60,557 nt of DNA from Candidatus Pacearchaeota archaeon (GCA_018304245.1 JAGVWO010000005.1:1-60557), one strand, 5' to 3'; counted from the stretch's first letter, positions 8,651-44,674 are shown. A program made the numbers and translations. Notes: generated from the letters alone by a model not told the origin.

Positions 8651-9337
8651 TTATTTATCAATTAATTTTGCCTTCTTGATTATAAAAATCCCCGAATTTC
8701 TATCCCATTTATTCTCAGAACTTGTAATTTCTATTCTCTTTTTGAAAAAAGGAGCATCCAAAACCGTTGTTTCTATTTCTCCGCCTTCTCCTGCTGGATT
8801 AGTTTGATATTTTTCTTTTAATTTAACCAATTTTTCTATGATTTCTCTATCTATTTTCTTTCCAAGCCATTTTTCATCAAGCGGATATGCAAAAACACCA
8901 GATATTATTACTTCAAATTTATTTTTTATGATTTCATTTAGAACATCTTCTTGATCTTTTTGCCAAAGAGGGTTAACACATTTTATTCTAAGTTTATCAC
9001 AAATTTTCTGTATTCTTGATGCCTGATAAACACTGGCTAATGCACCTGTAACAATTCCATCTAATTTGTATTTCTTCTTTACTTCTTTAATCACGTTTTC
9101 TAAATCCTCAAGCTCTTCTTCTTTAATTCCTTCTGTAATTTTTTGAACTAAAGGAATCTCTAATGCTTTTGCTTGTAATTTTGTTATCTCGATGTTTGGT
9201 GTATGAAACATAAAACTTTCTTTATTTTTTGATAGAATAGAAATTAAACAAACAATTGTATTTTCTTTTATCTCACTTGCTTTCATTAAAGCCAAACAAG
9301 AGTCTTTTCCACCTGAAAACAATACTCCAAGCCTCAT
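8651..9337 (-). CDS. PP-loop ATPase of the MJ0570/Dph6 family (diphthine-ammonia ligase-like)
   Basis: Start moved to the internal Met (MRLGVLFSGGKDSCLAL, an SGGKDS PP-loop). C-terminal NPAGEGGEIETTVLDAPFF block. The 57-codon upstream extension in the ORF track is low-complexity and would overlap the smc start. Confidence 0.7.
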   Translation of the reverse strand: MRLGVLFSGGKDSCLALMKASEIKENTIVCLISILSKNKESFMFHTPNIEITKLQAKALEIPLVQKITEGIKEEELEDLENVIKEVKKKYKLDGIVTGALASVYQASRIQKICDKLRIKCVNPLWQKDQEDVLNEIIKNKFEVIISGVFAYPLDEKWLGKKIDREIIEKLVKLKEKYQTNPAGEGGEIETTVLDAPFFKKRIEITSSENKWDRNSGIFIIKKAKLIDK

Positions 9338-9501
9338 AAAGTCTAAGAGAATTTTATTATTTAAATAACTTCTGGGTTCAAATATCAAAAATATCGACGC
9401 TAAATCAAAAATCTTAATGAAAAACCTTATAAAACTAGTTCTTCTATAATATTTGTAAGATTTGGGATATTTTAGAATATTGATAAAAAACGAGGTAACA
9501 T

Positions 9502-12423
9502 ATGCCATTTATAAAGAAACTTGAGATGCATGGATTTAAATCCTTCGCGAAACATACCGAAATCTTATTTGAAAAAGGATTAAATGTGGTTGTCGGTCCA
9601 AATGGCTCTGGAAAAAGCAATGTTACCGAATCTATATGTTTTGTTCTTGGAAGATTAAGTGCAAAAAGTATGAGGGCTGCAAAATCTGCAAATTTAATTT
9701 ATAATGGGGGGAAAGAACATAAACCAGCGCATGAAGCGAAGGTTGGAATTGTTTTTGATAATTCTGATGGTGCTTTTTCACTCGGAACAAAGGAAGTTGA
9801 AATTACCAGATTTTTAAAAAAAGATGGAACAAGCGTATATAAAATTAATAATGAAACCAAAACCCGTCAAGAAATCCTTGAGATGCTTGCTCAAGCATCT
9901 ATTGACCCAGAAGGATTCAATATAATTCTTCAGTCAGAAATAGATAGCTTCATTAAAATGCATCCAGAAGAAAGAAGAGAAATAATCGAAGAAATTGCGG
10001 GAATTTCGATATATGAAAATAGAAAAGAAAAATCTCTTAATGAGCTTGAGAAAACCGAAGTTAGATTAAAAGAAATTAAAACAGTTCTTACAGAACGTTC
10101 TGCTTATCTAAATAATCTTGAAAAAGAAAGAGAGCAGGCATTAAAAGCAGAAACATTGCAAAAAGATATCGCAAAAGAGAAAGCCTCTGTAATTTCAAGA
10201 CATATAGAAGATAAAAAGAAAATTGTGAATAAAACGAATAATGAGATTAGCGAAAGAAAAACCAATATCGACAAAATAAAAACGAAAATAGAAAATTATA
10301 GGTTTGAAATTTCTAGTTTGAACCAAAAAATTAGGGAAATTGAAGATAAAATAGAAAAACAAACCGGAGTGGAGCAAGAAAATTTAAGATCAGATGTTGT
10401 CAATTTAAAAACCGAACTTGCGACATTAAGGTTGAAAAGGGATAATTTGAATGATCAAATAAATAGTATTTATACAAGAGAACAAAACCTAATTGAAACA
10501 ATATCTCGAGCAAAACAAGAAATCGAAGATCTTGAAAAAAATTATCAACAAAAAATTTCTTCAAGCGAAAAAGAAAGATATAAACAAATAAATGAAGAGA
10601 TCTCAAAAATAAAAACACGAAACCAAGAACTTGAAACAAAAAGAGAAACATATCATGTTGCAAAAACAGAAATCGCTAGAAGGGAATCTAGATTGGGGGA
10701 ACTTGAAAAAAATTACCTCAAACTTAAAGAAGACCTATATAATTTAGCTAAGGAAATAACATCTATAAAAGAAAGTATGAAAAAACTTAGTGAGAAGGGA
10801 ATTGGTGAAGGAATCAAAACAAAGAAAAAAGAACATGAACAAGAACTTGAAAGAAAAAGAAATGACAGAACCTTAATTGAGAAAGAAATTATTTCCTTGA
10901 TAACAAAGAAAGATATTCAAAAGCAAAATATAGACGAGGTTTTGGAATTAAACAAATGCCCAACATGTAAACAAATCGTTACAAAAGAATACAAAGATAA
11001 TCTAAAAAAAGAGCTTAAAGAAATTATAGAAATCATAGAGAAAGATCTTCATTTAAAAAATAAAAATAAAGACAATATTGAAAAAGAAATTCAAAAAACA
11101 GTTGACTATGTCTCTGAACTTTTAGAAAAAGAAAGAGAATTAAATATCCTAAATAATTTCCAAAGAACACTTGAAGAAAAAGAAAATCATTTTGCTAAGG
11201 ACAAAACAAATGAGTCTTTACTTAATCAAGAAATCGCTGCATTAAAAATAGATCTTGAAAATTCTATAAAAACAATTGTAAATATAGAAAATATAGAAAA
11301 TATGCTTCTTGAAAATCAAGAAAAAGTTGAAAAATTAAAAGAAGAACTTATGAAATTAAGAAATACAAAACCGGAATTTATAGACGCTGAAAAGGACAAA
11401 AAAGTTGAAATTGCTATGAAAAAACAAGAAATCGAAAGAACAGAGCTAATAATAAAAAATGGGAAAAGAGATAAAATAGAATTAGAATCAAAACATAAAG
11501 AATCGATAGGGGAAATAGAACGTAAAGAAAAAGATTTAGATAGAAAACAAAAGAAACAAGAAGAAATCGATCAAAAATTTAAATCACAATTAGAAGAAAA
11601 ATCAAAGCTTCAAGAAAAAATTCATGAAAATGAAAATGTTATCCGGGATCAGCAAACAAAACAAATGACCTTTGAATCTGAAATGAATGAATTGAAAATA
11701 CAAAAAGCTGGTTTTGACGCAGAAATTTCTACATTGGACCTTGAATTCAGACAATTTGGGGAAATTGAAGTTCTTAAAATGCCTGTTGAAGAGTTAGAGA
11801 GAAGAATAAGGAAACATGAAGGAGAACTACAAAACATTGGATCTGTTAATATGCGTGCATTAGAGGTTTATGACAAAGTTAAAGAAGAATATGATTTCAT
11901 TGAACAACAAGTCAAGAAATTAGAAGAAGAAAAAATGGAAATCCTTAAACTGATTGAAGAAATTGACAAAAAGAAGAAAAGAGCATTTATGCAAGCATTT
12001 GACGCAATTAATGAATCTTTCTCAAGGAATTTTATGATGCTTTCTAATAAAGGAGAAGCATTCATGGATTTAGAGAACAAACAAGATCCCTTTGAAAGCG
12101 GTTTAAACGTTATTATAAGGCTCGCCAAAGGAAAATATATGGATGCGGAATCATTATCTGGTGGAGAAAAGACAATCGTTGCCCTAGCCATGATTTTTGC
12201 AATCCAGAAGTATAAGCCATATTCTTTTTACATTTTTGATGAAATTGATGCGGCATTAGATAAAAGAAATTCTGAAAGACTAGCAGAATTGATGAAACAG
12301 AATATAAAATCCTCTCAGTACATCATTATTTCCCATAATGACTATATTATCCAACATGCACAAGTATTATATGGAACCAGTATGCAGGAAGGTGTTAGTA
12401 AAATTGTTAGTTTGAAGTTTTAA
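9502..12423 (+). CDS. smc: SMC-family chromosome-maintenance ATPase, short (973 aa), hinge not recognisable, central CxxC
   Basis: N-terminal head HGFKSFAKHT...VGPNGSGKSN. C-terminal head LSGGEKTIVALAMIFAIQ...FYIFDEIDAALD...IISHN. Residues ~170-800 are uninterrupted K/E/I/L-rich coiled-coil-like sequence. GAGGT lies 8 nt upstream of the ATG. Confidence 0.85.
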   Translation: MPFIKKLEMHGFKSFAKHTEILFEKGLNVVVGPNGSGKSNVTESICFVLGRLSAKSMRAAKSANLIYNGGKEHKPAHEAKVGIVFDNSDGAFSLGTKEVEITRFLKKDGTSVYKINNETKTRQEILEMLAQASIDPEGFNIILQSEIDSFIKMHPEERREIIEEIAGISIYENRKEKSLNELEKTEVRLKEIKTVLTERSAYLNNLEKEREQALKAETLQKDIAKEKASVISRHIEDKKKIVNKTNNEISERKTNIDKIKTKIENYRFEISSLNQKIREIEDKIEKQTGVEQENLRSDVVNLKTELATLRLKRDNLNDQINSIYTREQNLIETISRAKQEIEDLEKNYQQKISSSEKERYKQINEEISKIKTRNQELETKRETYHVAKTEIARRESRLGELEKNYLKLKEDLYNLAKEITSIKESMKKLSEKGIGEGIKTKKKEHEQELERKRNDRTLIEKEIISLITKKDIQKQNIDEVLELNKCPTCKQIVTKEYKDNLKKELKEIIEIIEKDLHLKNKNKDNIEKEIQKTVDYVSELLEKERELNILNNFQRTLEEKENHFAKDKTNESLLNQEIAALKIDLENSIKTIVNIENIENMLLENQEKVEKLKEELMKLRNTKPEFIDAEKDKKVEIAMKKQEIERTELIIKNGKRDKIELESKHKESIGEIERKEKDLDRKQKKQEEIDQKFKSQLEEKSKLQEKIHENENVIRDQQTKQMTFESEMNELKIQKAGFDAEISTLDLEFRQFGEIEVLKMPVEELERRIRKHEGELQNIGSVNMRALEVYDKVKEEYDFIEQQVKKLEEEKMEILKLIEEIDKKKKRAFMQAFDAINESFSRNFMMLSNKGEAFMDLENKQDPFESGLNVIIRLAKGKYMDAESLSGGEKTIVALAMIFAIQKYKPYSFYIFDEIDAALDKRNSERLAELMKQNIKSSQYIIISHNDYIIQHAQVLYGTSMQEGVSKIVSLKF
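10957..10968 (+). other. CPTC codons (Cys486/Cys489) at the midpoint of the SMC-like protein: candidate zinc-hook
   Basis: tgc cca aca tgt read directly from the sequence. Residue 486 of 973. Flanked on both sides by heptad-like sequence. Confidence 0.5.
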
Positions 12424-12425
12424 AA

Positions 12426-12674
12426 CTAATTATTTCTAAGAATATAGGCTAAAGAATTCTTTTTACCTTTTTGAGTACCCTTTACCTTTCCTTGTCTTTC
12501 TAAATCTACAAGTGTTTTATTAATGTGATCTAAATATGTTTGTCCCAGATTATACACTGTAAACCCCTGTAATTCTAATTCAAAATAAATCTCGTTTAAG
12601 GTTTTGGGTGTCTCCTCTTCAAGAACTCCCAAAATTTCTAGAGAATTAATTTTAGTTATTGGTCCCGTTGACAT
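12426..12674 (-). CDS. small hypothetical protein (possible winged-helix fold)
   Basis: 82-aa ORF convergent with smc. The pattern LNEIYFELELQGF...INKTLVDLERQGKV resembles a wHTH recognition helix plus wing. Weak call. Confidence 0.3.
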   Translation of the reverse strand: MSTGPITKINSLEILGVLEEETPKTLNEIYFELELQGFTVYNLGQTYLDHINKTLVDLERQGKVKGTQKGKKNSLAYILRNN

Positions 12675-12693: not shown

Positions 12694-15213
12694 TTACTTC
12701 TCTTCGTCGTCTTCTGCAAAGAAATCAACTACCTTCTTTCCTGCACCACTTAGAACTATTGCAAGAATTACAATCACGATAATTGCTGCAATAATATAAT
12801 ATTTGTATAAATCAAAAAAGTTTGTCGTGTTAGTTGTTATCTTTTCTTCTTTGATTACTGTTGTAGGGTTATCGTTTACTGAAACATTAAATTTGTTTGA
12901 AGCAGTTATTTCTTTCCCATTTGAAGCATAAAAGGTCATGTCAACTATTCCCGAATAATTTGCGACTGGAACTATTGTTGCTTTTGAATTATTTATTTGA
13001 ACCTCAAAATTTGATGGTTTTATTGTTACAAAAGTTAATTTTTCATTTTGTGGATCTTCAAAATATGTACTTAAATCAAGGACAATTTGTTCCCCTTTCT
13101 TAATATTTAAACTTGGGATTTGCTTATTTAAAATTGGAGCTGTTTGATTTAATATTGGTTGTATTGTTTCTTTTGTAGTATTCTTTGTAACATTTGTTAT
13201 AGTAGTGTTTACTTCAGTTGTATTGGTTGTTGTAATGTTTGTAGTATTTACAGGCAAGGTTGTATTTGTTGTGTTTGTTGTATTTGTAATCGTATTTCCT
13301 GTAATTGAAGTATTTGTTGTTACTTTTGCTGTGCTTGTTGTGTTAACTGTTGCATTTGTGCTTAAATTGGTGGTATTTACTGGTTTAGTTGTGTTTGTTA
13401 TTGGTTTTGAAATATTTGTATTATTTGAAACAGTTTTGTTTTCGATTTGTGTTTTTGGTGCTGTTGGCTGGAATATTGACACAAACCAATCGCCTATTTT
13501 TTGGAAGAAATTTCTTTCTGTTGTTTTTACTGTTTGATTTGTTTCATTTGTTATTGGTTTTACACCAACTTCCTTTGTTACAAAAACATTAAGGTTCTTT
13601 GTAGATACAATAGTGGTATCTTTTAATCTTGCTGAAACAGTCAAACTATAATTTCCAAGTTGTACTTCTGGGCTTGGTGATAAATATAAATATACTGTTT
13701 GTGCTTTTGCTGGTTTAATTGTTACTGTTCCTGGATTTAATTCTGCAAATTGTGTTGCGGTTCCTGAAACTTCAAGGGTGTAATTTGCTTCATTTATTCC
13801 CTTATTTTCTATTACAAAGATTACTGTTCCAGTGCTATCTCTTGCAATATCTATCTCATCTAGTTGTGAACTTATTTGTGGTTTATAACAATCTTCAACG
13901 GAAATTGTTGATAGACTCAATGAATGTGATGCACTATAGTTGCTGATTTTATCTATTGCGATTATCTTTATTTCACTTGTTGCAGGTAATGAATTATATG
14001 GTGGGTGAACATCTAATGTAATTTGTTTTTCTCCAGATGTATTTAATGTGAAATGCTTCTCAGAAAGTGTTACCCAATTTGGAGCATCTAAAACAAGGTC
14101 ATATGTGTTTTGGAATTTTCCTGTATTTTTTATTAAAACAGAGTATGTCTTTGTCAATGCATTACACATTCTATCTTTTGTTGATTGTATCTCTGTATAA
14201 ACACCATAACAGTTTTTACTTTCTATTGTTATCTCTTGTTTCTTTATTATTTTCCCTTCTGTACTTAAAACATCGATTTTTGCAGTATAATTTCCAATTG
14301 TTTTGAATGGTGGTTGCACGAGAAGGTTTAATGTTTTTGAAGAATTAACTGGGATGTTTAATTCTTTTTGATCAATTGTTGCCCATGTTGGTGCATCTAA
14401 GTTAATTTTATAATTATTATTTTTGACCCCATTATTAGCCAGAGTAATTGGGACAACCAATTTTTCATTTTCGCAAACTGAATAGAAATATTTTTCTGGG
14501 ATAACTGTGTAATCATAACAAGAAACTGTATTAAATGAAGATTTTGCATTTGTTTGAGAATATTCTGATTCGGATTTTGCAACAACGTTCAATTCATAAC
14601 GCCCAATGGTATTACATGGTGTTGAGATATAAGCAAAAAATTCTCTGCTAGAATTTCCTGGAATAGTTAATTCAGTTAAACTTAGATTAGTCCATGCTGC
14701 TGCAATGCCGTCTGCGCTTATTTTATAATTTTCTATATATTTTCCTTTATTATATAATGTGTATTTTACAAATTTTTGTTCACATGAACAGATTGTCTGT
14801 GTTGTTGGTTCTGCTATTAATTCAGTATTATGGCAATTTTCAACTACAATTAATTGATGTGAGGTCCTAACCTGACCATTACTTGCAATTTGTAAATCTA
14901 AGTAATATAATCCTGGGGAAAATTTTGTTGAAGGTGTAAGATAAGTATATACTATATTATTTTGATATGGCTCTAAATAGAATCCACTTGGGACTGTTGT
15001 TGCAAAATTTGCTGCTGATCCAGATTGTGTTACTGTAAATGCTCCTGGTGTTGTTGTAGAAACAGAAGTTGTTAAAACAATTGTATTTGATGGGCAAACT
15101 GTGTTTGTTGTAATGTTTGTTGCAATGTAAAACTCTGCATTTGCGTATCCCACAAAAGCCAAGGCTAAAAATAAGAATGATACGAAAACTAAAATATTTT
15201 TTGTTAAATTCAT
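12694..15213 (-). CDS. large cell-surface protein: signal peptide, four ~100-aa CARDB/COG1361-like repeats, Thr/Asn-rich linker, Ig-like domain, C-terminal TM anchor
   Basis: N-terminal signal (FLFLALAFVGYANA). Four repeats each open with a Cys pair (ENCH..CSC, SCYDY..C, KNCYG..C, EDCYKP). C-terminal hydrophobic YYIIAAIIVIVILAIVL is followed by a charged tail. Confidence 0.7.
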   Translation of the reverse strand: MNLTKNILVFVSFLFLALAFVGYANAEFYIATNITTNTVCPSNTIVLTTSVSTTTPGAFTVTQSGSAANFATTVPSGFYLEPYQNNIVYTYLTPSTKFSPGLYYLDLQIASNGQVRTSHQLIVVENCHNTELIAEPTTQTICSCEQKFVKYTLYNKGKYIENYKISADGIAAAWTNLSLTELTIPGNSSREFFAYISTPCNTIGRYELNVVAKSESEYSQTNAKSSFNTVSCYDYTVIPEKYFYSVCENEKLVVPITLANNGVKNNNYKINLDAPTWATIDQKELNIPVNSSKTLNLLVQPPFKTIGNYTAKIDVLSTEGKIIKKQEITIESKNCYGVYTEIQSTKDRMCNALTKTYSVLIKNTGKFQNTYDLVLDAPNWVTLSEKHFTLNTSGEKQITLDVHPPYNSLPATSEIKIIAIDKISNYSASHSLSLSTISVEDCYKPQISSQLDEIDIARDSTGTVIFVIENKGINEANYTLEVSGTATQFAELNPGTVTIKPAKAQTVYLYLSPSPEVQLGNYSLTVSARLKDTTIVSTKNLNVFVTKEVGVKPITNETNQTVKTTERNFFQKIGDWFVSIFQPTAPKTQIENKTVSNNTNISKPITNTTKPVNTTNLSTNATVNTTSTAKVTTNTSITGNTITNTTNTTNTTLPVNTTNITTTNTTEVNTTITNVTKNTTKETIQPILNQTAPILNKQIPSLNIKKGEQIVLDLSTYFEDPQNEKLTFVTIKPSNFEVQINNSKATIVPVANYSGIVDMTFYASNGKEITASNKFNVSVNDNPTTVIKEEKITTNTTNFFDLYKYYIIAAIIVIVILAIVLSGAGKKVVDFFAEDDEEK
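13168..13551 (-). repeat. coding low-complexity Thr/Asn-rich linker, dense in N-x-S/T sequons
   Basis: Residues ~555-682 of the surface protein (…NTTKPVNTTNLSTNATVNTTSTAK…NTTNTTNTTLPVNTTNITTTNTTEVNTTITNVTKNTT). I count roughly twenty N-x-S/T sites by eye. Confidence 0.7.
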
Positions 15214-15356
15214 TTCGACCCTTGCCTTTTACTTAAGATTAAAAGAAAAACATCTTTTAAAAGCATTATGGTACTCAAAAAGTTATTTTCAAAAAAGCTA
15301 TTTTGAATATTAAAATCCAAAACATTTATAATTAAAAAAAATTTCTAAAAAAGACA

Positions 15357-15644
15357 ATGACTTTAAGATTAGAAGGGGAATTTGCTTTATGTCCACTTGG
15401 AAAATTTAAGATACATGCCCATAATAATTATTGTTTTGATGATCGTGCTTCTGAATATTGTTTAAATTGTTTTTATGGAAATTATGCAGAAGGCCCAAAT
15501 TTATTTAAGGTTTGCAAAGCCTCAGATAAAAAAACAAAAGAAGAGCTATTAGACTTAGTTGAAACATATAAAAAAACAGATGGTAAGTTAGCTCCTACGC
15601 CTTTTCAAGAATTCTTAGTAAAAAATGAACTGAACCCAGAATAG
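15357..15644 (+). CDS. hypothetical Cys-rich small protein
   Basis: 95-aa ORF with CPLG...H.HNNYC...YCLNC...C spacing. No family recognised. Confidence 0.35.
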   Translation: MTLRLEGEFALCPLGKFKIHAHNNYCFDDRASEYCLNCFYGNYAEGPNLFKVCKASDKKTKEELLDLVETYKKTDGKLAPTPFQEFLVKNELNPE

Positions 15645-15700
15645 TTCTCACTAATTTCTAAAGAAAAAAAGAAAGAAAAAAATAAAAAAATTAAAAATTC

Positions 15701-17038
15701 TTAATAGTAGCTTTCTTCTACTTTTGCACTTGACTTTTTGGCTAATAAGACAATAAGCAAGATTACAATTGCAATTGCTAAAACTATTCCGACAAACATT
15801 AAGATTGTCTTTAAGTCCCAGTTTGCTGATGTTTTATCAACATCTGCAGTTAAGTTAATTTGCTTAGCTAAGTTTTCTGAGGAAGCCTTAACTGTGAAAA
15901 TATGCTCGCCTGCAATTGCATTTTCTTTTATAACCAAATAGACTGTTGCGGTTTTTGATTCTCCAGGTGCTAATGTGAAAACGCTTGGATTGACTTGGCT
16001 TGAAGCAAAGTCTTCTGTTCCCAATGTAGCTAAAGTTACAGTCATTGCGCTTGAACCTGTGTTTGAAACAAGTACGCTAAATGCTGTGCCTTTTCCGGAT
16101 TCTGCATCAACCTTTGCATTGTATGCTGAAAGTTCCAATCCTGATACAGAAATTACTGTTTCTGGTTGAGATAATGCTGTTGATTTTTCAACATAAATCA
16201 TCTTTGTAACCTTGTCAGTTGTTTCATCGCTAAATGCTTCTATTTCAAGCAAATAAGTTCCTGATGCTGCATTTTCTGGAATTGTAAGAGCAAGTCTTAC
16301 AACTTGCGCATCTTCTTCATCACAGCCACTTGAACAATCTTCATCAGCAACTAAATCGCCAACATAAACTGTTCTACTTATGCCTAATTCTTTTATTGAA
16401 GCTTTAACAAAGATGTCATCAAGATCGTGGTTTCCCATGTTCTTTACAACAACATCTGCATAGATTGTACTTCCTGCTTTCAAAGTGCTTGAACTTCCAA
16501 AGAAATCAGCGTTCAAAATTTTCAAATTGTTTGCTAATCTTTGTACAGTTGTATCAATATTTGCACTTTCTATTCCAGTTAACGTATTTTTGTATGTTAC
16601 TTGGACATGCAAGGTGTATGTATCTTTTGCATCTAAGTCAGAAGGCAATTCTAAATTCAATCTTTTTGTGTAAACATTTCCTTCAAAAACATCGAATTTT
16701 GCAGTTTCTACCTCAACGTCATCATGGTATCCTGAGATCCATGCTCTTACTTCAAGGCTTGACATATCTTTTCCAGGAGTTAAAACAACTTTAACTTCTG
16801 TATTTGATCCTCTTTCCAATGCTGGAACGATGATCTGTTCTGTATTACAATTCCAGTAACTTAATCCTGGTACTTGAACACAGCTACCGTCAAAAACTGC
16901 GTTGCCATCAACATAGACAGTCATTTGGTCAATGCCTGGTTCACTTGTAACATTCCATGAATCTGCTAGTACACCAGCTAAACTCAAGATTGAAACAATT
17001 GCCAAAGCAAATGCGAAAAACCAAATTTTACTTTTCAT
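15701..17038 (-). CDS. cell-surface protein with CARDB-like domains and C-terminal TM anchor
   Basis: Signal peptide (FFAFALAIVSILSLAGVLA). CARDB-like segments (VVVKNMGNHDLDDIFVKA..., FSVLVSNTGSSAMTVTLA...LAPGESKTATVYL). C-terminal ILMFVGIVLAIAIVILLIVLLAKK anchor. Confidence 0.65.
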   Translation of the reverse strand: MKSKIWFFAFALAIVSILSLAGVLADSWNVTSEPGIDQMTVYVDGNAVFDGSCVQVPGLSYWNCNTEQIIVPALERGSNTEVKVVLTPGKDMSSLEVRAWISGYHDDVEVETAKFDVFEGNVYTKRLNLELPSDLDAKDTYTLHVQVTYKNTLTGIESANIDTTVQRLANNLKILNADFFGSSSTLKAGSTIYADVVVKNMGNHDLDDIFVKASIKELGISRTVYVGDLVADEDCSSGCDEEDAQVVRLALTIPENAASGTYLLEIEAFSDETTDKVTKMIYVEKSTALSQPETVISVSGLELSAYNAKVDAESGKGTAFSVLVSNTGSSAMTVTLATLGTEDFASSQVNPSVFTLAPGESKTATVYLVIKENAIAGEHIFTVKASSENLAKQINLTADVDKTSANWDLKTILMFVGIVLAIAIVILLIVLLAKKSSAKVEESYY

Positions 17039-17264
17039 TTTTGTGTGTTAATTTAAATTTAATTTGAATAGAAAAAAGCCCCTTAGCCTTTCCTATTCTC
17101 TTTCTTTAGTTTAGTTTCCTTTAAAAATCTTCTCATTTATCGACGGTGTTGTTACTAGTTGCGGGTAAATCAGTGAAAAATAAAGAATTGAACTTGTTAA
17201 TAGAATAAATCTATGGTCTTAATCGCCAGTTTGATTTCAGGGCGAGCAAACATCGATTATAAAA

Positions 17265-18059
17265 TTATTTATTAATTTCATCCCAGAGTTTTTTTCCTTT
17301 TATTGCATCATTCCAATTATCTGGGCTTTCATTTATGATTACACCAGAAAAATTATGTTTGTTAAATAATTCAAGAATCTGTTTCCAATCTTCTTTTGAT
17401 GTTGGAATATGCTTTTTTTCCCCTTTTTCTGTGAATTCAATTCCAGAAAAATGCGCTTGAATTTTTGTAATATTGTTCTTTTTTAATTTTTCAAAGATCT
17501 CATTATAATCTACCTTACCATTATATCTTGCTTTTAGGTGTGCAAAATCAATACATAAAAAACAATCTGTTTCTTTATGTAATCTTATTAATTCATCTAT
17601 ATCTCCAAATTGACTTGGTTTTCCTGTTGTTTCTGGAGCAAGAATAATTTTCCATCCTTTTTCTTTAATAATTTGCTGCATAGATTCAATTTCTTTTTTT
17701 ACTCTTTGATAAACTTCTTCTTTTGAATCTTTAAAATAAAATGCGGGATGAAAAACAACATATTTTGCCCCCATATGGTGTGCCCTCTCACAAGAATCAA
17801 GAATTCTTTTTTTACTCATGAAAATTTTCTGTCTTTCTTCTGCGTTAAGATTAATATAATAAGGTGCATGAATGCTTAATTGAATGTAGTGTTTTTTTGC
17901 AAGCTCGCCTAATCTTTTAGATTCTTCATTTGTAAGATTAACCCCATAGGTAAATTCAATCTCTGCTGCCGACAAATCATCTTTTTCTAATTTTGGAAAT
18001 GCTTCTTCTGCTGGCATACCAAATCCACCTGGTCCGAATTTAATTTCTGTTTTAGTCAT
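17265..18059 (-). CDS. nfo: endonuclease IV-like AP endonuclease (xylose-isomerase-like TIM barrel)
   Basis: Blocks SIHAPYYINL, YVVFHPAFY, ILAPETTGK, CIDFAHLKA, HFSGIEF...KHIP match the metal-ligand layout of the Nfo family. Confidence 0.7.
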   Translation of the reverse strand: MTKTEIKFGPGGFGMPAEEAFPKLEKDDLSAAEIEFTYGVNLTNEESKRLGELAKKHYIQLSIHAPYYINLNAEERQKIFMSKKRILDSCERAHHMGAKYVVFHPAFYFKDSKEEVYQRVKKEIESMQQIIKEKGWKIILAPETTGKPSQFGDIDELIRLHKETDCFLCIDFAHLKARYNGKVDYNEIFEKLKKNNITKIQAHFSGIEFTEKGEKKHIPTSKEDWKQILELFNKHNFSGVIINESPDNWNDAIKGKKLWDEINK

Positions 18060-18072
18060 TTTAGAATATGAT

Positions 18073-19833
18073 TTATTTTCCCAAGCCTATTGTTTTAACT
18101 CTTGTTTGCATTTTAAACAAACTAATTATTTCATCTGTGTCTGTTGCATCTTCTGGATTTTTATCACGAACCCATCCTTGAATTCTTGGGAATCTTAATG
18201 CATAACCAATATCTCCGCCTTTTCTTTTTCCGGCAGTGTGAATTGGGCTTTTTGTAATTTCATCTGCCATCACTGTAAAAACATATTTTGGTGAGCAATA
18301 AACATCTGGTTCAATTATTGTATCAACTCTTGCAGGTTTTCTTTCAACTCTAAGTTTATCAAGCATTTTTCTAATTTCAACCCATTTTTCTTCACTTAAA
18401 CCTGAACCAATTTTTGCGAGACTCTTGAATGTGTCTTCTTTTTTATCATAAGCTGCACCAAGTAATGCCCCTATTCCAAATTTGGCCCGCATTCCCTTTC
18501 CCTTAAAATATCCAATAATAACTAAATCGACAGTATCTTTTAATTCCCCCTTATAACTCCTCTTTAATTTTATCCAATTGAAATTTCTTCCACCTGCCTG
18601 ATATGGTGAATCTAAACGTTTAGCCATTATTCCTTCTGTTCCTTTCTCAATATTTTCCTCAAAGAATTTCTCTACTTTTTTTGGATCATCAGTAATTATT
18701 TTTTCGGCTTCACGAATAGTGAATCCTTTCTTGATTATTTTTGCAAGTTTCTCTTTTCTAATTAGATAGGGTTCTCCAGTAAAATCCTTACCATCGAGAT
18801 AAAGTAAATCAAATGAAAACAAAACTAATGGTTTGTCTTTTGCTGATGCCTCAATATCATATTTTCTTTTTCTAGTGATTGTGACTTGAAATGGAAAAAA
18901 TTCTCCTGTTTCTTCATTAAATGCAACTGCTTCACCTTCTCCAATTGCAGATTTTGCTTTAATTTGTTCTTTTATTCCCTTAACTAAATCTGGAAACATG
19001 TGTGTCATTCTTTCAAGATTCCGAGAAAATATTTCAACATTGTTATTTTCTAAGTGCCATTGTATTCTTAATCCATCATATTTTGTTTCAATTGCACATT
19101 TTCCGATTTTTTTAATAATCTCTTCTGAATTTGGAAGTCTTTCTGCCAATGCCATTCTAATTGGGGAAAATACCTTGGCCTTAAAATCTTTTATTCCTTT
19201 TTCTCCTTTTTCATATAATGTCTTTGCAACCAACCCTAAATCAGAACATAAATTGTATGCTTTTTCTATTTCTCCCCTTAATGTTCTATCTTCTCTGAAA
19301 ACTTTACTAAGCGAATCCATAATTGTTGGATCGCCAACGCCCAATCTTAAACTTCCTAAAACAAATCTAATAATATATTTTGCATCTTTTCCCTGCACAC
19401 TGATAAGTAGGCCTGTAAGCATCTCAATTTTTCTTGAAGAACTCCCTTCTCCAGATGTTTTTGCTATTTTTGATAATGATTGGTAGACTTCATCAATTGT
19501 GGGGGCTTTTGGTTTAAACAAAACCGCTATTTTTTTTGATAAAACCTCTTCTGCAACTAATCCAAAATCTCCTTTTTTCTTGTAAAGTTGCTCAATTTTT
19601 TCTTGAGAAGTATTTGATGCTTTTGCTATGGCTTTTTCGACCATCTTTTCAGCTAATCCTAATTCTAATCCATAAAAACTTGGAAGAATATGCTCTTGTA
19701 ATAAATAAATTATTTTGTCTATTTCCTCTTTATTCGTTTCTTTTAAAAGATCACTTAAAATATCAAACATTTCCAACCTTTTTGTCGTGGCCTCAAGCCT
19801 TTCAAAAGTTTCTGTTAATTGTGAAAAAAGCAT
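18073..19833 (-). CDS. lig: ATP-dependent DNA ligase
   Basis: 586 aa. Adenylation motif I AIETKYDGLRIQ (KxDG), EGIMAKRLDSPYQAGGR, and the WIKLK motif. Confidence 0.9.
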   Translation of the reverse strand: MLFSQLTETFERLEATTKRLEMFDILSDLLKETNKEEIDKIIYLLQEHILPSFYGLELGLAEKMVEKAIAKASNTSQEKIEQLYKKKGDFGLVAEEVLSKKIAVLFKPKAPTIDEVYQSLSKIAKTSGEGSSSRKIEMLTGLLISVQGKDAKYIIRFVLGSLRLGVGDPTIMDSLSKVFREDRTLRGEIEKAYNLCSDLGLVAKTLYEKGEKGIKDFKAKVFSPIRMALAERLPNSEEIIKKIGKCAIETKYDGLRIQWHLENNNVEIFSRNLERMTHMFPDLVKGIKEQIKAKSAIGEGEAVAFNEETGEFFPFQVTITRKRKYDIEASAKDKPLVLFSFDLLYLDGKDFTGEPYLIRKEKLAKIIKKGFTIREAEKIITDDPKKVEKFFEENIEKGTEGIMAKRLDSPYQAGGRNFNWIKLKRSYKGELKDTVDLVIIGYFKGKGMRAKFGIGALLGAAYDKKEDTFKSLAKIGSGLSEEKWVEIRKMLDKLRVERKPARVDTIIEPDVYCSPKYVFTVMADEITKSPIHTAGKRKGGDIGYALRFPRIQGWVRDKNPEDATDTDEIISLFKMQTRVKTIGLGK

Positions 19834-19917
19834 ATTTTACTGAGGGGCGTTTGGTTTTTAATATTTACTATCTCTTTCTTGGGAAACATTTTTATATAAC
19901 TTAAAATTAAATTAAAC

Positions 19918-20295
19918 ATGGAATTGGATAAGGCAATCGAAAAAAGAAGATATGTTCTAATTATCTGTAATGAAATTTCTTTGTTAAAAAAAGGATATGG
20001 GGGCTTTGCAGAGACCTATTGCAAACAGCAAGCAGGAGCAGCAATTCAAAATATGTTATTAAAAATTACAGAAAAAGGTTTGGCAGGTTGTTGGATTGGT
20101 GCATTTGAAGAAGAAGAAATAAAAAGAATTCTGAAAATACCAGACAATATAAGGGTAGAAGCTCTTCTTCCAATTGCAATACCCTTCCCTAAATTGAAAA
20201 TTCCGGAAAAAAGAAAACCTGATTTGAAAAATATTTCTTTCTTTAACACCTGGGGTAAAAAATATACTGAAAAAAGACCAATGCCTGCATTGTAA
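19918..20295 (+). CDS. nitroreductase-family remnant (N-terminal FMN-binding segment apparently deleted in frame)
   Basis: The C-terminal two thirds look like a nitroreductase (AGAAIQNMLLKITEKGLAGCWIGAF...IPDNIRVEALLPIAIP). However, MELDKAIEKRR runs directly into the mid-protein strand YVLIICNE, skipping the usual RS[VI]RKF...P[ST]..N.QPW region. Confidence 0.5.
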   Translation: MELDKAIEKRRYVLIICNEISLLKKGYGGFAETYCKQQAGAAIQNMLLKITEKGLAGCWIGAFEEEEIKRILKIPDNIRVEALLPIAIPFPKLKIPEKRKPDLKNISFFNTWGKKYTEKRPMPAL

Positions 20296-20368
20296 TTATT
20301 CTAAGATTATATTAAATTCAGTACAATAAAATTTAAAAAGTACAAGCGGGTATCCAATTTAATAAAAA

Positions 20369-21028
20369 ATGGTGCTTAACAAACAAGAACTTATTTCAGG
20401 AATGTTAAAATATAATACTCCTGAGAGAAAGATAGAATATCTTGAAGTCGAAATTCGAAAAGGGCTTTCTCAAGAATTAAAAAAAGATGCGTGTGTTCTG
20501 ATCGCACAATTATATGAATCAAAAAAATGGTGGGGAAATTCTGCAAAAAATTATCAAATTGCGGCAGATTTGGCTGTATTAATCCCTGAAAAAATGAATC
20601 TGTTATTCAAAACTGGTGAACTGTATATGATGGCAGAAGATTATTTTAGTTCTGATGATTATTTTAGAAGGGCGATGGGTCAGGCCTCTTCCAGAGAAAG
20701 GGCAGATATGCAAAAGAAAATATTCTCTATGTATTTATCAATGGCTCAACAATACGAGTCAACTAAAAATAACACTAAAGCAATTACAATTTACAATAGG
20801 ATTTTATCATTGCCAGGGTATCCATTTTCAGAATGTCAAAAAATCAGAGATAAATTAATTGTTCTTTATGAAAAAATTGGAAAACCCTTTGAAGCAAACC
20901 AAATAAGGAGTCATATTAAAAATCAAGATGCAATGGCAGAAAAAGCAAAACAAGATGCAAGGCAAAGATTAGAAGAAGCAAAACAACAAAAATCTAATGA
21001 TGGTTTTTATGAAATTGATTTTGGTTAA
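20369..21028 (+). CDS. hypothetical helical-repeat (TPR-like) protein with Lys/Gln-rich C-terminus
   Basis: 219-aa ORF, predicted all-helical with repeated A..Y/F..A spacing. No family recognised. Confidence 0.4.
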   Translation: MVLNKQELISGMLKYNTPERKIEYLEVEIRKGLSQELKKDACVLIAQLYESKKWWGNSAKNYQIAADLAVLIPEKMNLLFKTGELYMMAEDYFSSDDYFRRAMGQASSRERADMQKKIFSMYLSMAQQYESTKNNTKAITIYNRILSLPGYPFSECQKIRDKLIVLYEKIGKPFEANQIRSHIKNQDAMAEKAKQDARQRLEEAKQQKSNDGFYEIDFG

Positions 21029-21057
21029 TTTAAAATTCTTTTAAAATATTTTTATCC

Positions 21058-21630
21058 CTAAGTCCAATATAATTTTTTAGAATCATATCTAAAATGTTCT
21101 TCTGCAACATTCAAAAGGGCCTTTGTTGAAACTATATGTGGTGCATTTGCAAATCTTCCTCTTTTTGATATCCAAACAGATTTTCTTATTGCGTGATCAT
21201 ACACAAAAACATTCCAACCATATGATTCATAGAAACTTTTTACTTCATCTACTTGGGTTTTTTTTCTTTCATGAAATTCTATAACATTTAAATCTGGATA
21301 AAATTCCCCTTCAGATTTTCCCTCTGGACTAAATAAATGTCTTGAAGAATTTATCAAACCATACACTTTTCCAACCTTCGTCATCTGTTGGTATAAAAAT
21401 AAATTTCTAAAAATTTTTGTTTTTTCTTTTGTTAATCCAAAATCTTGAACATCTGGTGTCTTCTTATAATTTTCATATTTTGGATCAAAAATTACAAAAG
21501 AATTATAATCTTTTATTGTCATTTCCGTATAAATCTTTGCAACTTCTTCTGCAAATTTTCCCTTATAGATTTCTCCTGGAATGCAAAATAAAAAAATTGA
21601 ATTTCTCTTAGCCATAAAATTTCTGTACAA
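21058..21630 (-). CDS. hypothetical protein
   Basis: 190-aa ORF with no recognisable motif. The start may be Met6 (MAKRNS...). Confidence 0.4.
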   Translation of the reverse strand: MYRNFMAKRNSIFLFCIPGEIYKGKFAEEVAKIYTEMTIKDYNSFVIFDPKYENYKKTPDVQDFGLTKEKTKIFRNLFLYQQMTKVGKVYGLINSSRHLFSPEGKSEGEFYPDLNVIEFHERKKTQVDEVKSFYESYGWNVFVYDHAIRKSVWISKRGRFANAPHIVSTKALLNVAEEHFRYDSKKLYWT

Positions 21631-21682
21631 AGAACATACTTAAGTCTTTGGAATCTCAGAGCTCTCGCTTAATATTAATTAA

Positions 21683-21701
21683 GCCGGCCTTGAGGGCCGG
21701 C
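21683..21701. other. GC-only hairpin GCCGGCC-ttgag-GGCCGGC in an AT-rich spacer
   Basis: Perfect 7-bp G/C stem read directly from the sequence. It lies about 50 nt upstream of the start of the 21058-21630 gene. Confidence 0.4.
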
Positions 21702-21854
21702 CAGAAATCTATTATTTCTTTAAAGGCTAAGGGGAATATAAATTAGATAAGTTAATTAAATGATCTTGTTGATAATCGAATAAGTTTCCACCATCTGCCT
21801 CTTTTTTACATAAATTATTAGAAAATAGTATTAATAAATGTTTCTGGAATTGTA

Positions 21855-21882
21855 TTTTTATACACATTCGTGTGTATAAAAA
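21855..21882. other. perfect 12-bp hairpin TTTTTATACACA-ttcg-TGTGTATAAAAA
   Basis: Inverted repeat with a 4-nt loop (UUCG on the plus strand, CGAA on the minus strand), read directly from the sequence. Confidence 0.4.
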
Positions 21883-21940
21883 AATTAAAAGAAAAAATTT
21901 TCTGGATATTCAAAAATTAAAAGAAAAAATAAAAAGCAAA

Positions 21941-21954
21941 GGGGCTTTCGCCCC
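21941..21954 (-). terminator. candidate ftsZ terminator hairpin (GGGGC-gaaa-GCCCC on the minus strand) followed by a T-rich tract
   Basis: It starts about 10 nt after the ftsZ stop codon. On the transcribed strand the stem is followed by TTTGCTTTTTATTTTTTCTTTT. Confidence 0.45.
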
Positions 21955-21963
21955 CTTAGCAAT

Positions 21964-23043
21964 TTATCTGTAGAAGTCTACACCGATGTCAGCCATGTGG
22001 CCGCTTGATGCGTAAACGTCTTCTCTCTTTTGAGATCCAAGGACATATGGAGATTTAACACCAGTTATGATGGTAATAACTCTTACTCTTCCTTTGAAAT
22101 CTCTGTTGATTCTTGCTCCAATGATAACTTGTGCATCTGGACTCAAGTTTTCAGTAATTAATTGACCAATGTTGTTCAATTCTTCTAACTTCAAGTCTTC
22201 ACCACAAATTACGTGGATCAATGAACCTGTTGCACCCTTATAGTCGATGTCCAATAATGGATGACTCAAAGCTTGCTTTACAGCTTCTTCAACTCTGTTT
22301 TGAGTGTCGCTTTCTCCGATACCGATTACTGCAACATCTCCGTTCTTCATAATTGAAGAAACGTCTGCATAATCTAGGTTGATCAAAGATGGAATTGTAA
22401 TTGTTTCTACAATACCTTTAATCATTGTTGCAATTAATTCATTTGCAACTGCGAAAGCTTGTTCAACTGGCAAGTTACCTGCGATATCAACTAGTCTGTT
22501 GTTATCGATTACGATTACTGTGTCAGCTGCTTCTCTCAACTGTTGTAAACCAAATTCAGCTTTTTCGATTCTTGCTCTTTCTGTTTCGAAAGGCATTGTG
22601 ACAACTCCGATTGTTACTGCACCTACTTCTTTTGAAAGTTGTGCAACAACTGGTGCAGAACCTGTTCCTGTTCCCCCACCCATACCTGCAACCAAGAATA
22701 CCATATCTGCGCCGGAGACTGCTCTTTTCAAGTCGACCATTGCTTCTTTAGCTGCTTCTCTACCTTTTTCAGGGTAACCACCACATCCTAATCCTCTAGT
22801 TAATTCCTTTCCGATTAAGATTTTTTCGTCTGCTTTACATACACTCAAATGAAGTGCGTCTGTATTTGCTGCGAAAACGGTTGCTCCCGTAATTCCTTTA
22901 TTATATAGCCATGTGATTGCGTTACATCCAGCACCACCAAGTCCGATAACTTTAATGCTTGCTTTTCCTGCTTTAAGTTCTTCGAAGTTGATACCGTATT
23001 TGCCTACGCCTTCAATAGCTTCTTTTGCAAAATCTAATGCCAT
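21964..23043 (-). CDS. ftsZ: cell division GTPase FtsZ
   Basis: Tubulin/FtsZ signature VAGMGGGTGTGSAPVVA, N-terminal GLGGAGCNA, NTDALHL. Confidence 0.95.
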   Translation of the reverse strand: MALDFAKEAIEGVGKYGINFEELKAGKASIKVIGLGGAGCNAITWLYNKGITGATVFAANTDALHLSVCKADEKILIGKELTRGLGCGGYPEKGREAAKEAMVDLKRAVSGADMVFLVAGMGGGTGTGSAPVVAQLSKEVGAVTIGVVTMPFETERARIEKAEFGLQQLREAADTVIVIDNNRLVDIAGNLPVEQAFAVANELIATMIKGIVETITIPSLINLDYADVSSIMKNGDVAVIGIGESDTQNRVEEAVKQALSHPLLDIDYKGATGSLIHVICGEDLKLEELNNIGQLITENLSPDAQVIIGARINRDFKGRVRVITIITGVKSPYVLGSQKREDVYASSGHMADIGVDFYR

Positions 23044-28393: not shown

Positions 28394-29032
28394 TTATTTT
28401 TGTTTAAACCGATTTTTTCTACCATAATTTTCTGTTTTTTTATGACATTCATTACAAAGAGTTATTCCATTTTCTACTGAAAATCTTAAATCGGGGTAAT
28501 CTGAAAATGATTTTATATGGTGTGCTTCTAATTTTCTACCTCTTTGTTTACAAATATAACAAGTCCAGTTATCTCTTTTAAAAACAGCAGTTCTCCAATT
28601 TTTAAAAGGTAATGAGGTTCTTATTTTTGCATTTATTGGTGTAATTCCCCCTTTCCATAAATGTGATTTTTCTCCTGCCATAAATCCAATTAAATTTTTA
28701 TTCCAGGCTTTTCTTCCAATCATCTTTCTTTTTGTTTCTTCTGAAAGTTTTTTTCCTTTTCTTGCCCTACTAATTTTTAATTTTGTTTCAGCATACATTT
28801 TTTTGCCTTTCCAGTAATTTATTGGATTTTTTTTACGAGATTCACTCATTTTTATTAATTCTTCTTTAGAAAATCCGTGTCCCTTTTGAAATTGTCCTCC
28901 CTTTAGATATTTTGCTTTACAGCTAACTGAGCAAAATTTTAATTTATTTTTTCTTTGTGATATATATGCTAAAAAATCCTTATTGCAATTATCACAATTA
29001 AATTTTGTTTTTGACATATCCAAACAAATCAA
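28394..29032 (-). CDS. free-standing HNH endonuclease with NUMOD3-like DNA-binding repeats (homing-endonuclease type)
   Basis: C-terminal HNH core WTCYICKQRGRKLEAHHIKSF...NGITLCNECHKK. Upstream repeats of the G..[SF]SxExxxKxS type (GHGFSKEELIKMSESRKKN, GKKLSEETKRKMIGRKAWN). N-terminal CDNC...CSVSC. Confidence 0.8.
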   Translation of the reverse strand: MICLDMSKTKFNCDNCNKDFLAYISQRKNKLKFCSVSCKAKYLKGGQFQKGHGFSKEELIKMSESRKKNPINYWKGKKMYAETKLKISRARKGKKLSEETKRKMIGRKAWNKNLIGFMAGEKSHLWKGGITPINAKIRTSLPFKNWRTAVFKRDNWTCYICKQRGRKLEAHHIKSFSDYPDLRFSVENGITLCNECHKKTENYGRKNRFKQK

Positions 29033-43341: not shown

Positions 43342-43342
43342 T

Positions 43343-44605: not shown

Positions 44606-44674
44606 AATAAAAAACAGAATCAAAGATATTTAAGAATTGTTATTGTTCTCTAGTCTGTTTATAGTCTCTTAAGA

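Follow-up and report, generated by a model that had tools for sequence, protein, structure and literature searches.

A hinge-less SMC protein of Candidatus Pacearchaeota that appears to carry a Rad50-type zinc-hook apex

We analyzed a 60,557-nucleotide stretch of DNA from a Candidatus Pacearchaeota archaeon (GCA_018304245.1, JAGVWO010000005.1:1-60557; hereafter, the window) and focus on its smc gene (positions 9502–12423, + strand). Open reading frame (ORF) calling together with Pfam, NCBIfam, and Protein Data Bank (PDB) searches shows that the gene encodes a hinge-less, hook-bearing SMC of 973 amino acids. The NCBI record of this protein (MBS3073332.1, present on three contigs) is named ‘chromosome segregation protein SMC [Candidatus Pacearchaeota archaeon]’, an automated label that hides the hook architecture. 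An earlier note, made from the DNA alone, had proposed that SMC heads are joined here to an arm with a Rad50-like apex. Sequence comparisons support a more extensive version of this proposal, in which the protein is an SMC/Rad50 chimera with defined junctions.

Both halves of the ATPase head are of the SMC type, and all of the motifs quoted in the note are present. The N-terminal half (residues 1–170; 9502–10011, + strand) matches hinge-bearing SMCs in register with 100% probability and contains the Walker A motif GPNGSGKS (residues 32–39; nucleotides 9595–9618, + strand). The C-terminal half (residues 805–973; 11914–12423, + strand) contains the signature LSGGE (residues 885–889; nucleotides 12154–12168, + strand) and the Walker B motif FYIFDE (residues 909–914; nucleotides 12226–12243, + strand), followed by D920 of the D-loop and H945 of the H-loop, and ends in an SMC-type C-terminal tail. 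In an alignment of 99 family members, G32, N34, G35, G37, K38, S39, R58, Q144 (the Q-loop), S886-G887-G888, D913-E914, D920, and H945 are invariant. Searched at full length, the protein matches Pfam SMC_N (E = 1.8e-45, 155.5 bits, residues 3–965), and its best NCBIfam model is SMC_prok_A (TIGR02169), at a sub-threshold 538.9 bits (cutoff 729.4); TIGR02168 is likewise below threshold (505.3 bits, cutoff 567.35). Each of these two models matches in two stretches with the middle of the model skipped, the first TIGR02169 stretch pairing residues 3–480 with model positions 1–482 of 1165. The best Rad50 model in NCBIfam reaches only 103.4 bits against cutoffs of 700–1087, and in a PDB sequence search Smc heads rank first (5xei, 2.5e-104), with Rad50 heads far lower (6e-13).

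The hinge is missing, as the note had claimed. A Pfam scan of the full-length protein reports neither SMC_hinge (PF06470) nor Rad50_zn_hook, even at E ≤ 1, whereas the Pfam hinge model scores 101–121 bits in the nearest hinge-bearing relatives (37–41% identity). A local hinge hidden Markov model (HMM; --max, E ≤ 10) matches 0 of 132 hook-class proteins and 108 of 108 hinge-bearing proteins, none of which has a CPxC, and hinge and hook are thus mutually exclusive among the SMCs examined. The 973 residues include three cysteines in total, C46, C486, and C489. The last two form the sole cysteine pair of the arm, and it does sit at the exact midpoint: the CPTC (C486-P487-T488-C489; 10957–10968, + strand), which forms part of the extended motif LNKCPTCKQIVTKEYK, has a fractional position of 0.499 in the chain. 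Family conservation and hook profiles mark C486 and C489 as predicted zinc-hook cysteines.

More than 130 homologues, recovered from independent assemblies (NCBI, JGI, ENA, and Logan), have this architecture in common and, where named, are annotated as Candidatus Pacearchaeota (DPANN). The best 120 homologues measure 797–1006 amino acids, apart from one with an intein insertion. None of these has a precomputed hinge domain, and ~105 carry a mid-chain (~0.50) CPxC, down to 41% identity. Among representatives clustered at 50% identity, the mid-chain CPxC occurs in every full-length cluster of ~945–1023 amino acids among the closest matches, and never in the hinge-bearing SMCs that rank after the hook-type clusters. 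Across residues 214–728 of the 99-sequence alignment, no column other than C486, P487, and C489 is invariant. The CPxC pattern is far beyond chance, and its invariance across more than 130 sequences, in a coiled coil that otherwise drifts, points to strong selection on the hook site. Misassembly, a concern raised at the outset, is ruled out by these homologues and by the absence of DNA similarity between smc and the rad50 gene of the window. Searching genome contigs with a profile of the family alignment returned mostly ordinary bacterial and archaeal SMCs; the matches listed include one partial hook-type locus (L001) and the Woesearchaeota loci used below for synteny comparison.

Profile comparisons identify the apex as a Rad50 hook rather than a mere CxxC. 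The family motif, h-x-x-[LIM]-[DN]-x-C-P-x-C-K-x-K-[IV]-[TS]-x-E-[HY], conserves the extended Rad50 hook signature beyond the cysteines (CPxC-x3-[IV]-[TS]-x-E-[HY]). When an apex profile was compared with all PDB sequences, the top two matches were the Pyrococcus furiosus Rad50 hooks 6zff (1.7e-7) and 1l8d (1.7e-6), aligned with the cysteines in register and with CPxC-x3-[IL]-T-x-E-H common to both; the next matches, from 4e-4 on, are generic coiled coils. Conversely, when the SMC family was used to build a 37-column hook-core HMM, this model gave 26.9 bits for the hook of the window's own Rad50, 17.3 bits for P. furiosus Rad50, and 18.6–45.8 bits (median 32.8) for 119 DPANN Rad50s, and no more than 3.5 bits for 108 hinge-bearing SMCs, for their reversed sequences, and for 26 proteins without hinge or hook. 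The hook consensus of the SMCs (EKIKxQIxKLDICPLCKxKITKEHKxxxxKExxEKIx) is nearly identical to that of the Rad50s (xxIKxKIxKLxxCPxCKQxVxxEHKxxIxxEEDxKIx), and identity over the 37 hook residues is 0.32 between the families versus 0.39–0.41 inside each. The resemblance to Rad50 seen by eye in the note is therefore upheld at the profile level. The Rad50_zn_hook model, which the note had named for checking, is the Pfam entry most often matched when apex fragments of the family are scanned (21 of the 31 fragments, with a best E of 1.2e-5); the fragment of the window protein stays below threshold. The Rad50_zn_hook signal is seen with apex fragments and family profiles only, and not in full-length Pfam scans.

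The CPxC turn could instead have a purely structural role at the apex, as an intramolecular metal site or just as a tight turn, in a protein that is monomeric or that dimerizes through its heads or arms. Some members of the clade, the ~800-residue mini-SMCs described below, have neither hinge nor hook at the same locus and apparently manage without a recognizable apex dimerizer, and for the hook SMC itself a dimer is predicted from homology. Set against this, a single CxxC provides two ligands, and a tetrahedral zinc site can be completed only by another chain, as happens in Rad50 (Hopfner 2002, as cited in PMC5344682). Moreover, conservation covers the extended Rad50 hook signature and not the cysteines alone, and C, P, and C stay fixed in a freely drifting coil. 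We consider a structural apex without dimerization quite improbable.

Structure prediction has the chain reverse at the hook. The full-length AlphaFold2 model, built with the family alignment (mean predicted local distance difference test score, pLDDT, 81), has SMC-like head elements and a long antiparallel intramolecular coiled-coil arm formed by helices 168–481 and 495–847, between which a reversal loop (482–494) holds the CPTC. An apex-only model (residues 400–575) is a helical hairpin (pLDDT 92.4) with its loop at 483–494, in agreement with the suggestion that the chain folds back at this point. The arm was also described as an uninterrupted coiled coil over residues ~170–800, and here the model disagrees: it shows several helix breaks (209–219, 348–353, 431–436, 482–494, 592–594, 622–630, 751–761, and 777–785). 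These are mirror-symmetric about residues 487/488, such that 209–219 pairs with 751–761 and 348–353 with 622–630.

The register of profile matches along the chain changes twice, and it changes at two of these breaks. In 80-residue windows, residues 1–360 match hinge-bearing SMCs at identical residue numbers (95–100%), residues 361–640 match DPANN Rad50 residues 230–491 at a constant offset of 131 (92–99%, versus 18–50% and out of register for hinge-bearing SMCs), and residues 641–973 match hinge-bearing SMC residues 823–1157 in register (97–100%). Windows of 50 residues sharpen the limits: the SMC register ends at 347, the Rad50 register runs from ~359 to ~615–622, and from 631 on the SMC register is restored. 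The arm can accordingly be divided into an SMC-type head-proximal strand on the N side, with the same residue numbers as in hinge-bearing SMCs (residues 171–347; 10012–10542, + strand); a junction zone that includes the break at 348–353 (residues 348–358; 10543–10575, + strand); a putatively Rad50-derived module of two ~127-residue coiled-coil strands and the hook, collinear with DPANN Rad50 ~228–489 (residues ~359–620; 10576–11361, + strand); a second junction zone that includes the break at 622–630 (residues 621–630; 11362–11391, + strand); and an SMC-type head-proximal strand on the C side, in register with hinge-bearing SMC 813–986 at an offset of +182 (residues 631–804; 11392–11913, + strand). 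Both register switches thus coincide with predicted helix breaks that are symmetric about the hook and paired across the antiparallel coil. A graft into an antiparallel coil requires symmetric junctions, and the observed switches fit this requirement. The note had raised the possibility of an apex exchange with rad50; the data back it and make its extent larger than was proposed, ~262 residues (359–620). In the hinge-bearing relative P0145 (1157 amino acids), the part replaced corresponds to residues ~348–812, that is, the hinge and distal arm (~465 amino acids). The hook SMC arm keeps a roughly canonical ~316 residues per strand from head to hook.

Because coiled-coil profiles cross-match, the Rad50 likeness of the distal arm could in principle be convergent or an artefact, with only the short hook motif having arisen de novo or having been transferred after hinge loss. 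Unrelated arm controls do reach hhalign scores of 31–53 and probabilities of up to 94.7%, and individual hookless 50-residue windows score only 27–43. The register, however, is consistent. Aligned with DPANN Rad50 by hhalign, the apex of the SMC family (±88 residues) matches end to end in register (99.75%, E = 2.5e-27); with the hook core deleted, it still does so with a score of 89, above all of the coiled-coil controls. All 22 overlapping 50-residue windows (341–480 and 541–650) choose offset 131 from ~690 possible positions, unchanged in windows without hook residues, whereas against hinge-bearing SMCs the same windows give inconsistent offsets at probabilities of 0.5–38%. In the window's own pair of proteins, SMC residues 359–620 slid ungapped along Rad50 place offset 131 first of 419 (53 of 262 identities, z = 5.7), and it remains first without the hook core (z = 4.1). 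Since both switches also fall on predicted helix breaks paired across the coil, we regard convergence or artefact as extremely unlikely, and favor a graft that includes long stretches of Rad50 coil.

There is no DNA-level similarity between smc and rad50 of the window, which rules out both an assembly chimera and recent conversion. Gene conversion between smc and rad50 within one genome was considered and rejected: SMC and Rad50 from presumed same-contig pairs (contigs of identical length), and likewise from the window pair, resemble each other no more closely than do random pairs (rank 18–46 of 119). We also discarded a correspondence of the junctions with the boundaries of the crystallized Pyrococcus yayanosii Smc middle fragment (5xg2, 345–468/694–814), which has no sequence match and is a numerical coincidence only.

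The heads place the family among true SMCs. In a neighbor-joining tree of concatenated head halves, the hook forms and the ~800-residue forms make up one clade, which adjoins 12 hinge-bearing SMCs, among them P0143, annotated as Candidatus Woesearchaeota. The family nests among hinge-bearing SMCs, from which its head distances are 0.58–0.88, and the window Rad50 lies far outside at 1.87. Gene order tells the same story. Downstream of smc lies a conserved block (12694–23043, − strand) that serves as an orthology marker and comprises an 839-residue surface protein, a 445-residue protein, an AP endonuclease, a DNA ligase, two + strand genes, and FtsZ. Its order is the same after hook-SMC and mini-SMC genes, and its first two genes also follow a hinge-bearing Woesearchaeota SMC. 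Within Pacearchaeota, eight downstream genes are conserved, including those for the surface protein, the 445-residue protein, AP endonuclease, DNA ligase, a nitroreductase, a 200-residue protein, and FtsZ. Woesearchaeota loci L005 and L006 have homologues of both downstream genes after a hinge-bearing smc (E = 4e-78 and 2e-26), and Nanoarchaeota locus L002 has one of the two after its smc. Synteny settles the orthology: the hook SMC is the positional orthologue of the hinge-bearing archaeal Smc.

This bears on another explanation, that the protein is an accessory SMC-like paralogue, of the ASRP type (ClsN, Sph) or a defense ATPase such as Lamassu LmuB, which does a different job beside a normal hinge-bearing Smc. 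ASRPs (PMC9389158) and many LmuB proteins (PMC10586767) do bear a CPxC-type hook, the hook SMC scores 116.5 bits with the NCBIfam ASRP model and 88.5 bits with the PADLOC LmuB model, and the survey of SMC genes covered the 60-kb window alone. The ASRP score nevertheless falls far under its cutoff of 300, compared with 539 for SMC_prok_A. Membership of a defense system was examined and rejected, since PADLOC gives only generic SMC-head matches (LmuB, the best, over residues 4–429, and mad3); there is no LmuA-like neighbor, and E914, the Walker B glutamate typically missing from LmuB, is intact. The gene also occupies the syntenic slot of the hinge-bearing Woesearchaeota smc and lies among housekeeping genes (those for DNA ligase, FtsZ, and an rRNA methyltransferase), and the heads and proximal arms of the protein can be matched to hinge-bearing SMCs residue by residue. 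An accessory paralogue is, in our judgment, very improbable.

We therefore think it likely that the protein is the lineage's own chromosomal SMC, in which a DPANN-type Rad50 apex has replaced the hinge together with the distal third of each arm strand and which forms a zinc-hook homodimer. In such a protein, ~465 amino acids of hinge and distal arms would have given way to a ~262-residue Rad50 module (the hook and ~127 residues of coil on each side), while SMC heads with intact ATPase motifs and the head-proximal arms would have been retained. By analogy with Rad50, two protomers would pair at the apex, where C486 and C489 of both chains would coordinate one Zn2+ in a tetrahedral site. The hook would hold the dimer together constitutively in place of the hinge, on arms of near-canonical length, and the hook dimer could then work with a kleisin as SMCs usually do, using ATP to entrap DNA or extrude loops, hinge-free. 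The replacement probably took place once, long ago, in the ancestor of this Pacearchaeota clade.

Several observations weigh against this interpretation. The window protein's own apex fragment scores 14.2 bits against Rad50_zn_hook (E = 0.039), below the cutoff of 24.3, and the domain is absent from the full-length scan. A Foldseek search of the PDB with the apex model found nothing at E ≤ 0.001, which is what a bare helical hairpin would lead one to expect; amid generic coiled-coil hairpins, Rad50 hooks come in at ranks 2 (5gox), 6–7 (1l8d; template-modeling score 0.81–0.82, target-normalized, root-mean-square deviation 2.5–2.7 Å), and 13 (7zqy), which is not decisive. Single 50-residue coiled-coil windows have modest hhalign probabilities (41–93%), and the argument is the constancy of the register. 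The clade of hook and ~800-residue heads has a neighbor-joining bootstrap of 68/100. Zinc binding and dimerization are predicted from homology to Rad50. Our view is confined to the 60-kb window, and a second, hinge-bearing SMC may be encoded elsewhere in the genome. Finally, the window offers no kleisin partner: Pfam finds neither ScpA nor ScpB among 29 mid-sized ORFs of the 60-kb window, both are also missing within ±10 kb of related smc loci, and archaeal ScpA HMMs (--max) match nothing in the window or in the flanks of Pacearchaeota and Woesearchaeota smc loci. One of these HMMs was built from genes that lie downstream of smc at eight loci and whose family was confirmed as PF02616; the other was broader. 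A database search for ScpA gave mainly Thermoplasmata-type proteins and is silent on Pacearchaeota.

A related group of mini-SMCs (~780–810 amino acids) occurs on Pacearchaeota-type contigs, with heads like those of the hook SMC (50–58% identity) and with neither hinge nor CxxC. Its members are P0038, P0050, P0059, P0064, P0076, P0083, P0087, P0090, P0103, P0104, P0110, P0112, P0130, P0139, and P0140, as well as locus L084 (1125–3518); P0104 occupies the chromosomal locus of the hook SMC. In the P0038 subgroup, the SMC register extends to ~348 and returns from ~629 (hook-SMC numbering), and the ~100-residue apex between these points has no CxxC and no match to Rad50, hinge-bearing SMC, or hook SMC. 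Because these junctions are those of the hook SMC, the same two junctions carry three apex types. The mini-SMCs lie inside the hook clade of the head tree and may have arisen when the Rad50 module was in turn replaced. Going further, one could imagine ~348 and ~630 as the boundaries of a cassette that accepts a hinge, a hook, or a minimal hairpin, with the ~800-residue forms being SMCs that work with neither hinge nor hook, and the SMC and Rad50 of one cell forming mixed zinc-bridged pairs that would couple a chromosome-folding motor to a double-strand-break sensor. Such pairs are conceivable because the hooks and flanking coils are homologous, but we consider this scenario unlikely.

Apex type is not the only SMC feature that varies unusually among small-genome archaea; arm length does so too. 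Short SMCs that keep the hinge on much shorter arms (810–850 amino acids) occur in other archaea: L011 (9992–13289, Aenigmatarchaeota), where scpA is directly next, and P0192, P0197, P0205, P0207, P0223, P0224, P0232, P0236, and P0241. Insertions of ~500–550 amino acids are found near the N-terminus of the hook-type proteins P0024, P0133, and P0137 (~1480–1490 amino acids) and in hinge-type proteins of ~1660–1800 amino acids (P0146, P0157, P0159, P0161, P0165–P0167, P0180, P0185, and P0228). In these insertion-bearing DPANN SMCs, the match to the query starts only at residues 21–38, around the Walker A loop, and P0024 has precomputed intein/LAGLIDADG domains (PF14528, PF14890). The insertions are probably inteins in or near the SMC P-loop, in hook and hinge forms alike.

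Reviews define SMC by its hinge and Rad50 by its zinc hook (PMC10586767), and the protein described here combines traits of both. It resembles prokaryotic Smc (Smc-ScpAB) in its SMC ABC heads with all catalytic motifs, collinear proximal coil, ~316-residue strands, and the smc position of Woesearchaeota, and differs from it in lacking a hinge, in its Rad50-type distal arm with CPxC, in its 539 bits against a 729-bit cutoff, and in having no ScpA/ScpB in the 60-kb window. With Rad50/SbcC it shares the apical CPxC hook, the extended motif, and ~127 residues of coil per strand, whereas its heads are not those of Rad50, it is not adjacent to mre11, and a genuine rad50-mre11 pair exists separately in the same organism. 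ASRPs (ClsN/coalescin, Sph1/2; Yoshinaga et al., 2022, PMC9389158) are likewise archaeal SMC-superfamily proteins with a coil, in which a zinc-hook motif takes the place of the hinge; they form a separate family, whereas the hook SMC has heads and proximal arms orthologous to those of canonical SMC and matches the ASRP model (NF045487, model length 593) in three partial stretches. LmuB proteins, many of which have a zinc hook, typically carry an E-to-Q change in Walker B (PMC10586767). The ‘hinge-less’ SMC variants of marine Actinobacteria are explicitly without CXXC (2025, PMC12153180); these bacterial proteins are nearer to the ~800-residue mini-SMCs than to the hook form.

The closest precedents are laboratory constructs. 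Engineered Bacillus subtilis Smc(Zh), in which the P. furiosus Rad50 zinc hook replaces the hinge, supports growth and keeps arm–arm association (Burmann et al., 2017, PMC5344682), and yeast Rad50 with a MukB hinge works in DNA repair (Tatebe et al., 2020, PMC6969161). Because both constructs work, a hook SMC is functionally plausible. Smc(Zh) follows the same design principle, an SMC chassis with a Rad50 hook, and the archaeal protein differs in being natural and conserved across a lineage, in including the long Rad50 coil, and in having its junctions ~130 residues from the hook. The note had known of no SMC with this architecture, and within the one literature collection that we searched there is no description of a natural hook-bearing SMC, an absence of evidence limited to that collection. 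From sequence, the protein appears to be the natural counterpart of a chimera so far reported only as a laboratory construct, conserved across a whole lineage. It is a long-running question whether the hinge has roles beyond keeping the dimer joined, such as those of a DNA entry gate, a DNA-binding site, or a relay of conformational change. Swaps made in the laboratory pointed to a replaceable hinge (PMC5344682, PMC6969161), and an entire archaeal lineage appears to run its orthologous SMC on a Rad50 apex. This would be a natural experiment with many independent sequences and a sister group with an even more reduced apex. It would define which parts are chassis and which are exchangeable arm parts, give exact junctions for chimera design, and provide a small protein set for in vitro tests of hinge-free loop extrusion or DNA loading. 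It would also mean that the two oldest branches of the SMC superfamily have exchanged domains.

The window also encodes a genuine Rad50 of 689 amino acids (41272–43341, − strand), whose hook CPVC (residues 355–358) is encoded at nucleotides 42268–42279, where the note had placed it. A 426-residue ORF directly upstream (43343–44623, − strand) reads as Mre11 from its translation and position. This rad50-mre11 pair (41272–44623) is separate from smc, ~29 kb away, and smc has no mre11 beside it. The Rad50 is short, as are its ~120 DPANN relatives (664–699 amino acids), with the hook at fraction 0.51, and it scores 20.6 bits against Pfam Rad50_zn_hook, under the 24.3 cutoff. Standard annotation can therefore miss hooks in this lineage; most of the DPANN Rad50 relatives are named only ‘AAA family ATPase’.

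On either side of smc lie a diphthamide-synthase-like gene and a small ORF with no family assignment. Taken at its longest, the diphthamide-synthase-like ORF (8651–9508, − strand) runs head to head into the smc start codon (9502, + strand), with an overlap of 7 nucleotides. Its Pfam domain begins at residue 57, and the true start is therefore probably further in, in which case the two genes would share a short divergent promoter region. The small ORF, of 82 residues and convergent with smc (12426–12674, − strand), begins 3 nucleotides past the smc stop, matches no Pfam family, and is absent at the equivalent spot in L081 and L084, where the surface-protein gene is directly next. The 839- and 445-residue proteins that follow are Thr/Asn-rich, membrane-anchored surface proteins (12694–17038, − strand, in the window; 13459–16830 in L005; 12946–16934 in L081) and are tightly linked to smc in Pacearchaeota, Woesearchaeota, and Nanoarchaeota; their relatives have faint matches of the CARDB/NPCBM_assoc type, which are immunoglobulin-like. 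Further downstream, a free-standing ORF of 211 amino acids (28394–29032, − strand) resembles HNH/NUMOD3 homing endonucleases.

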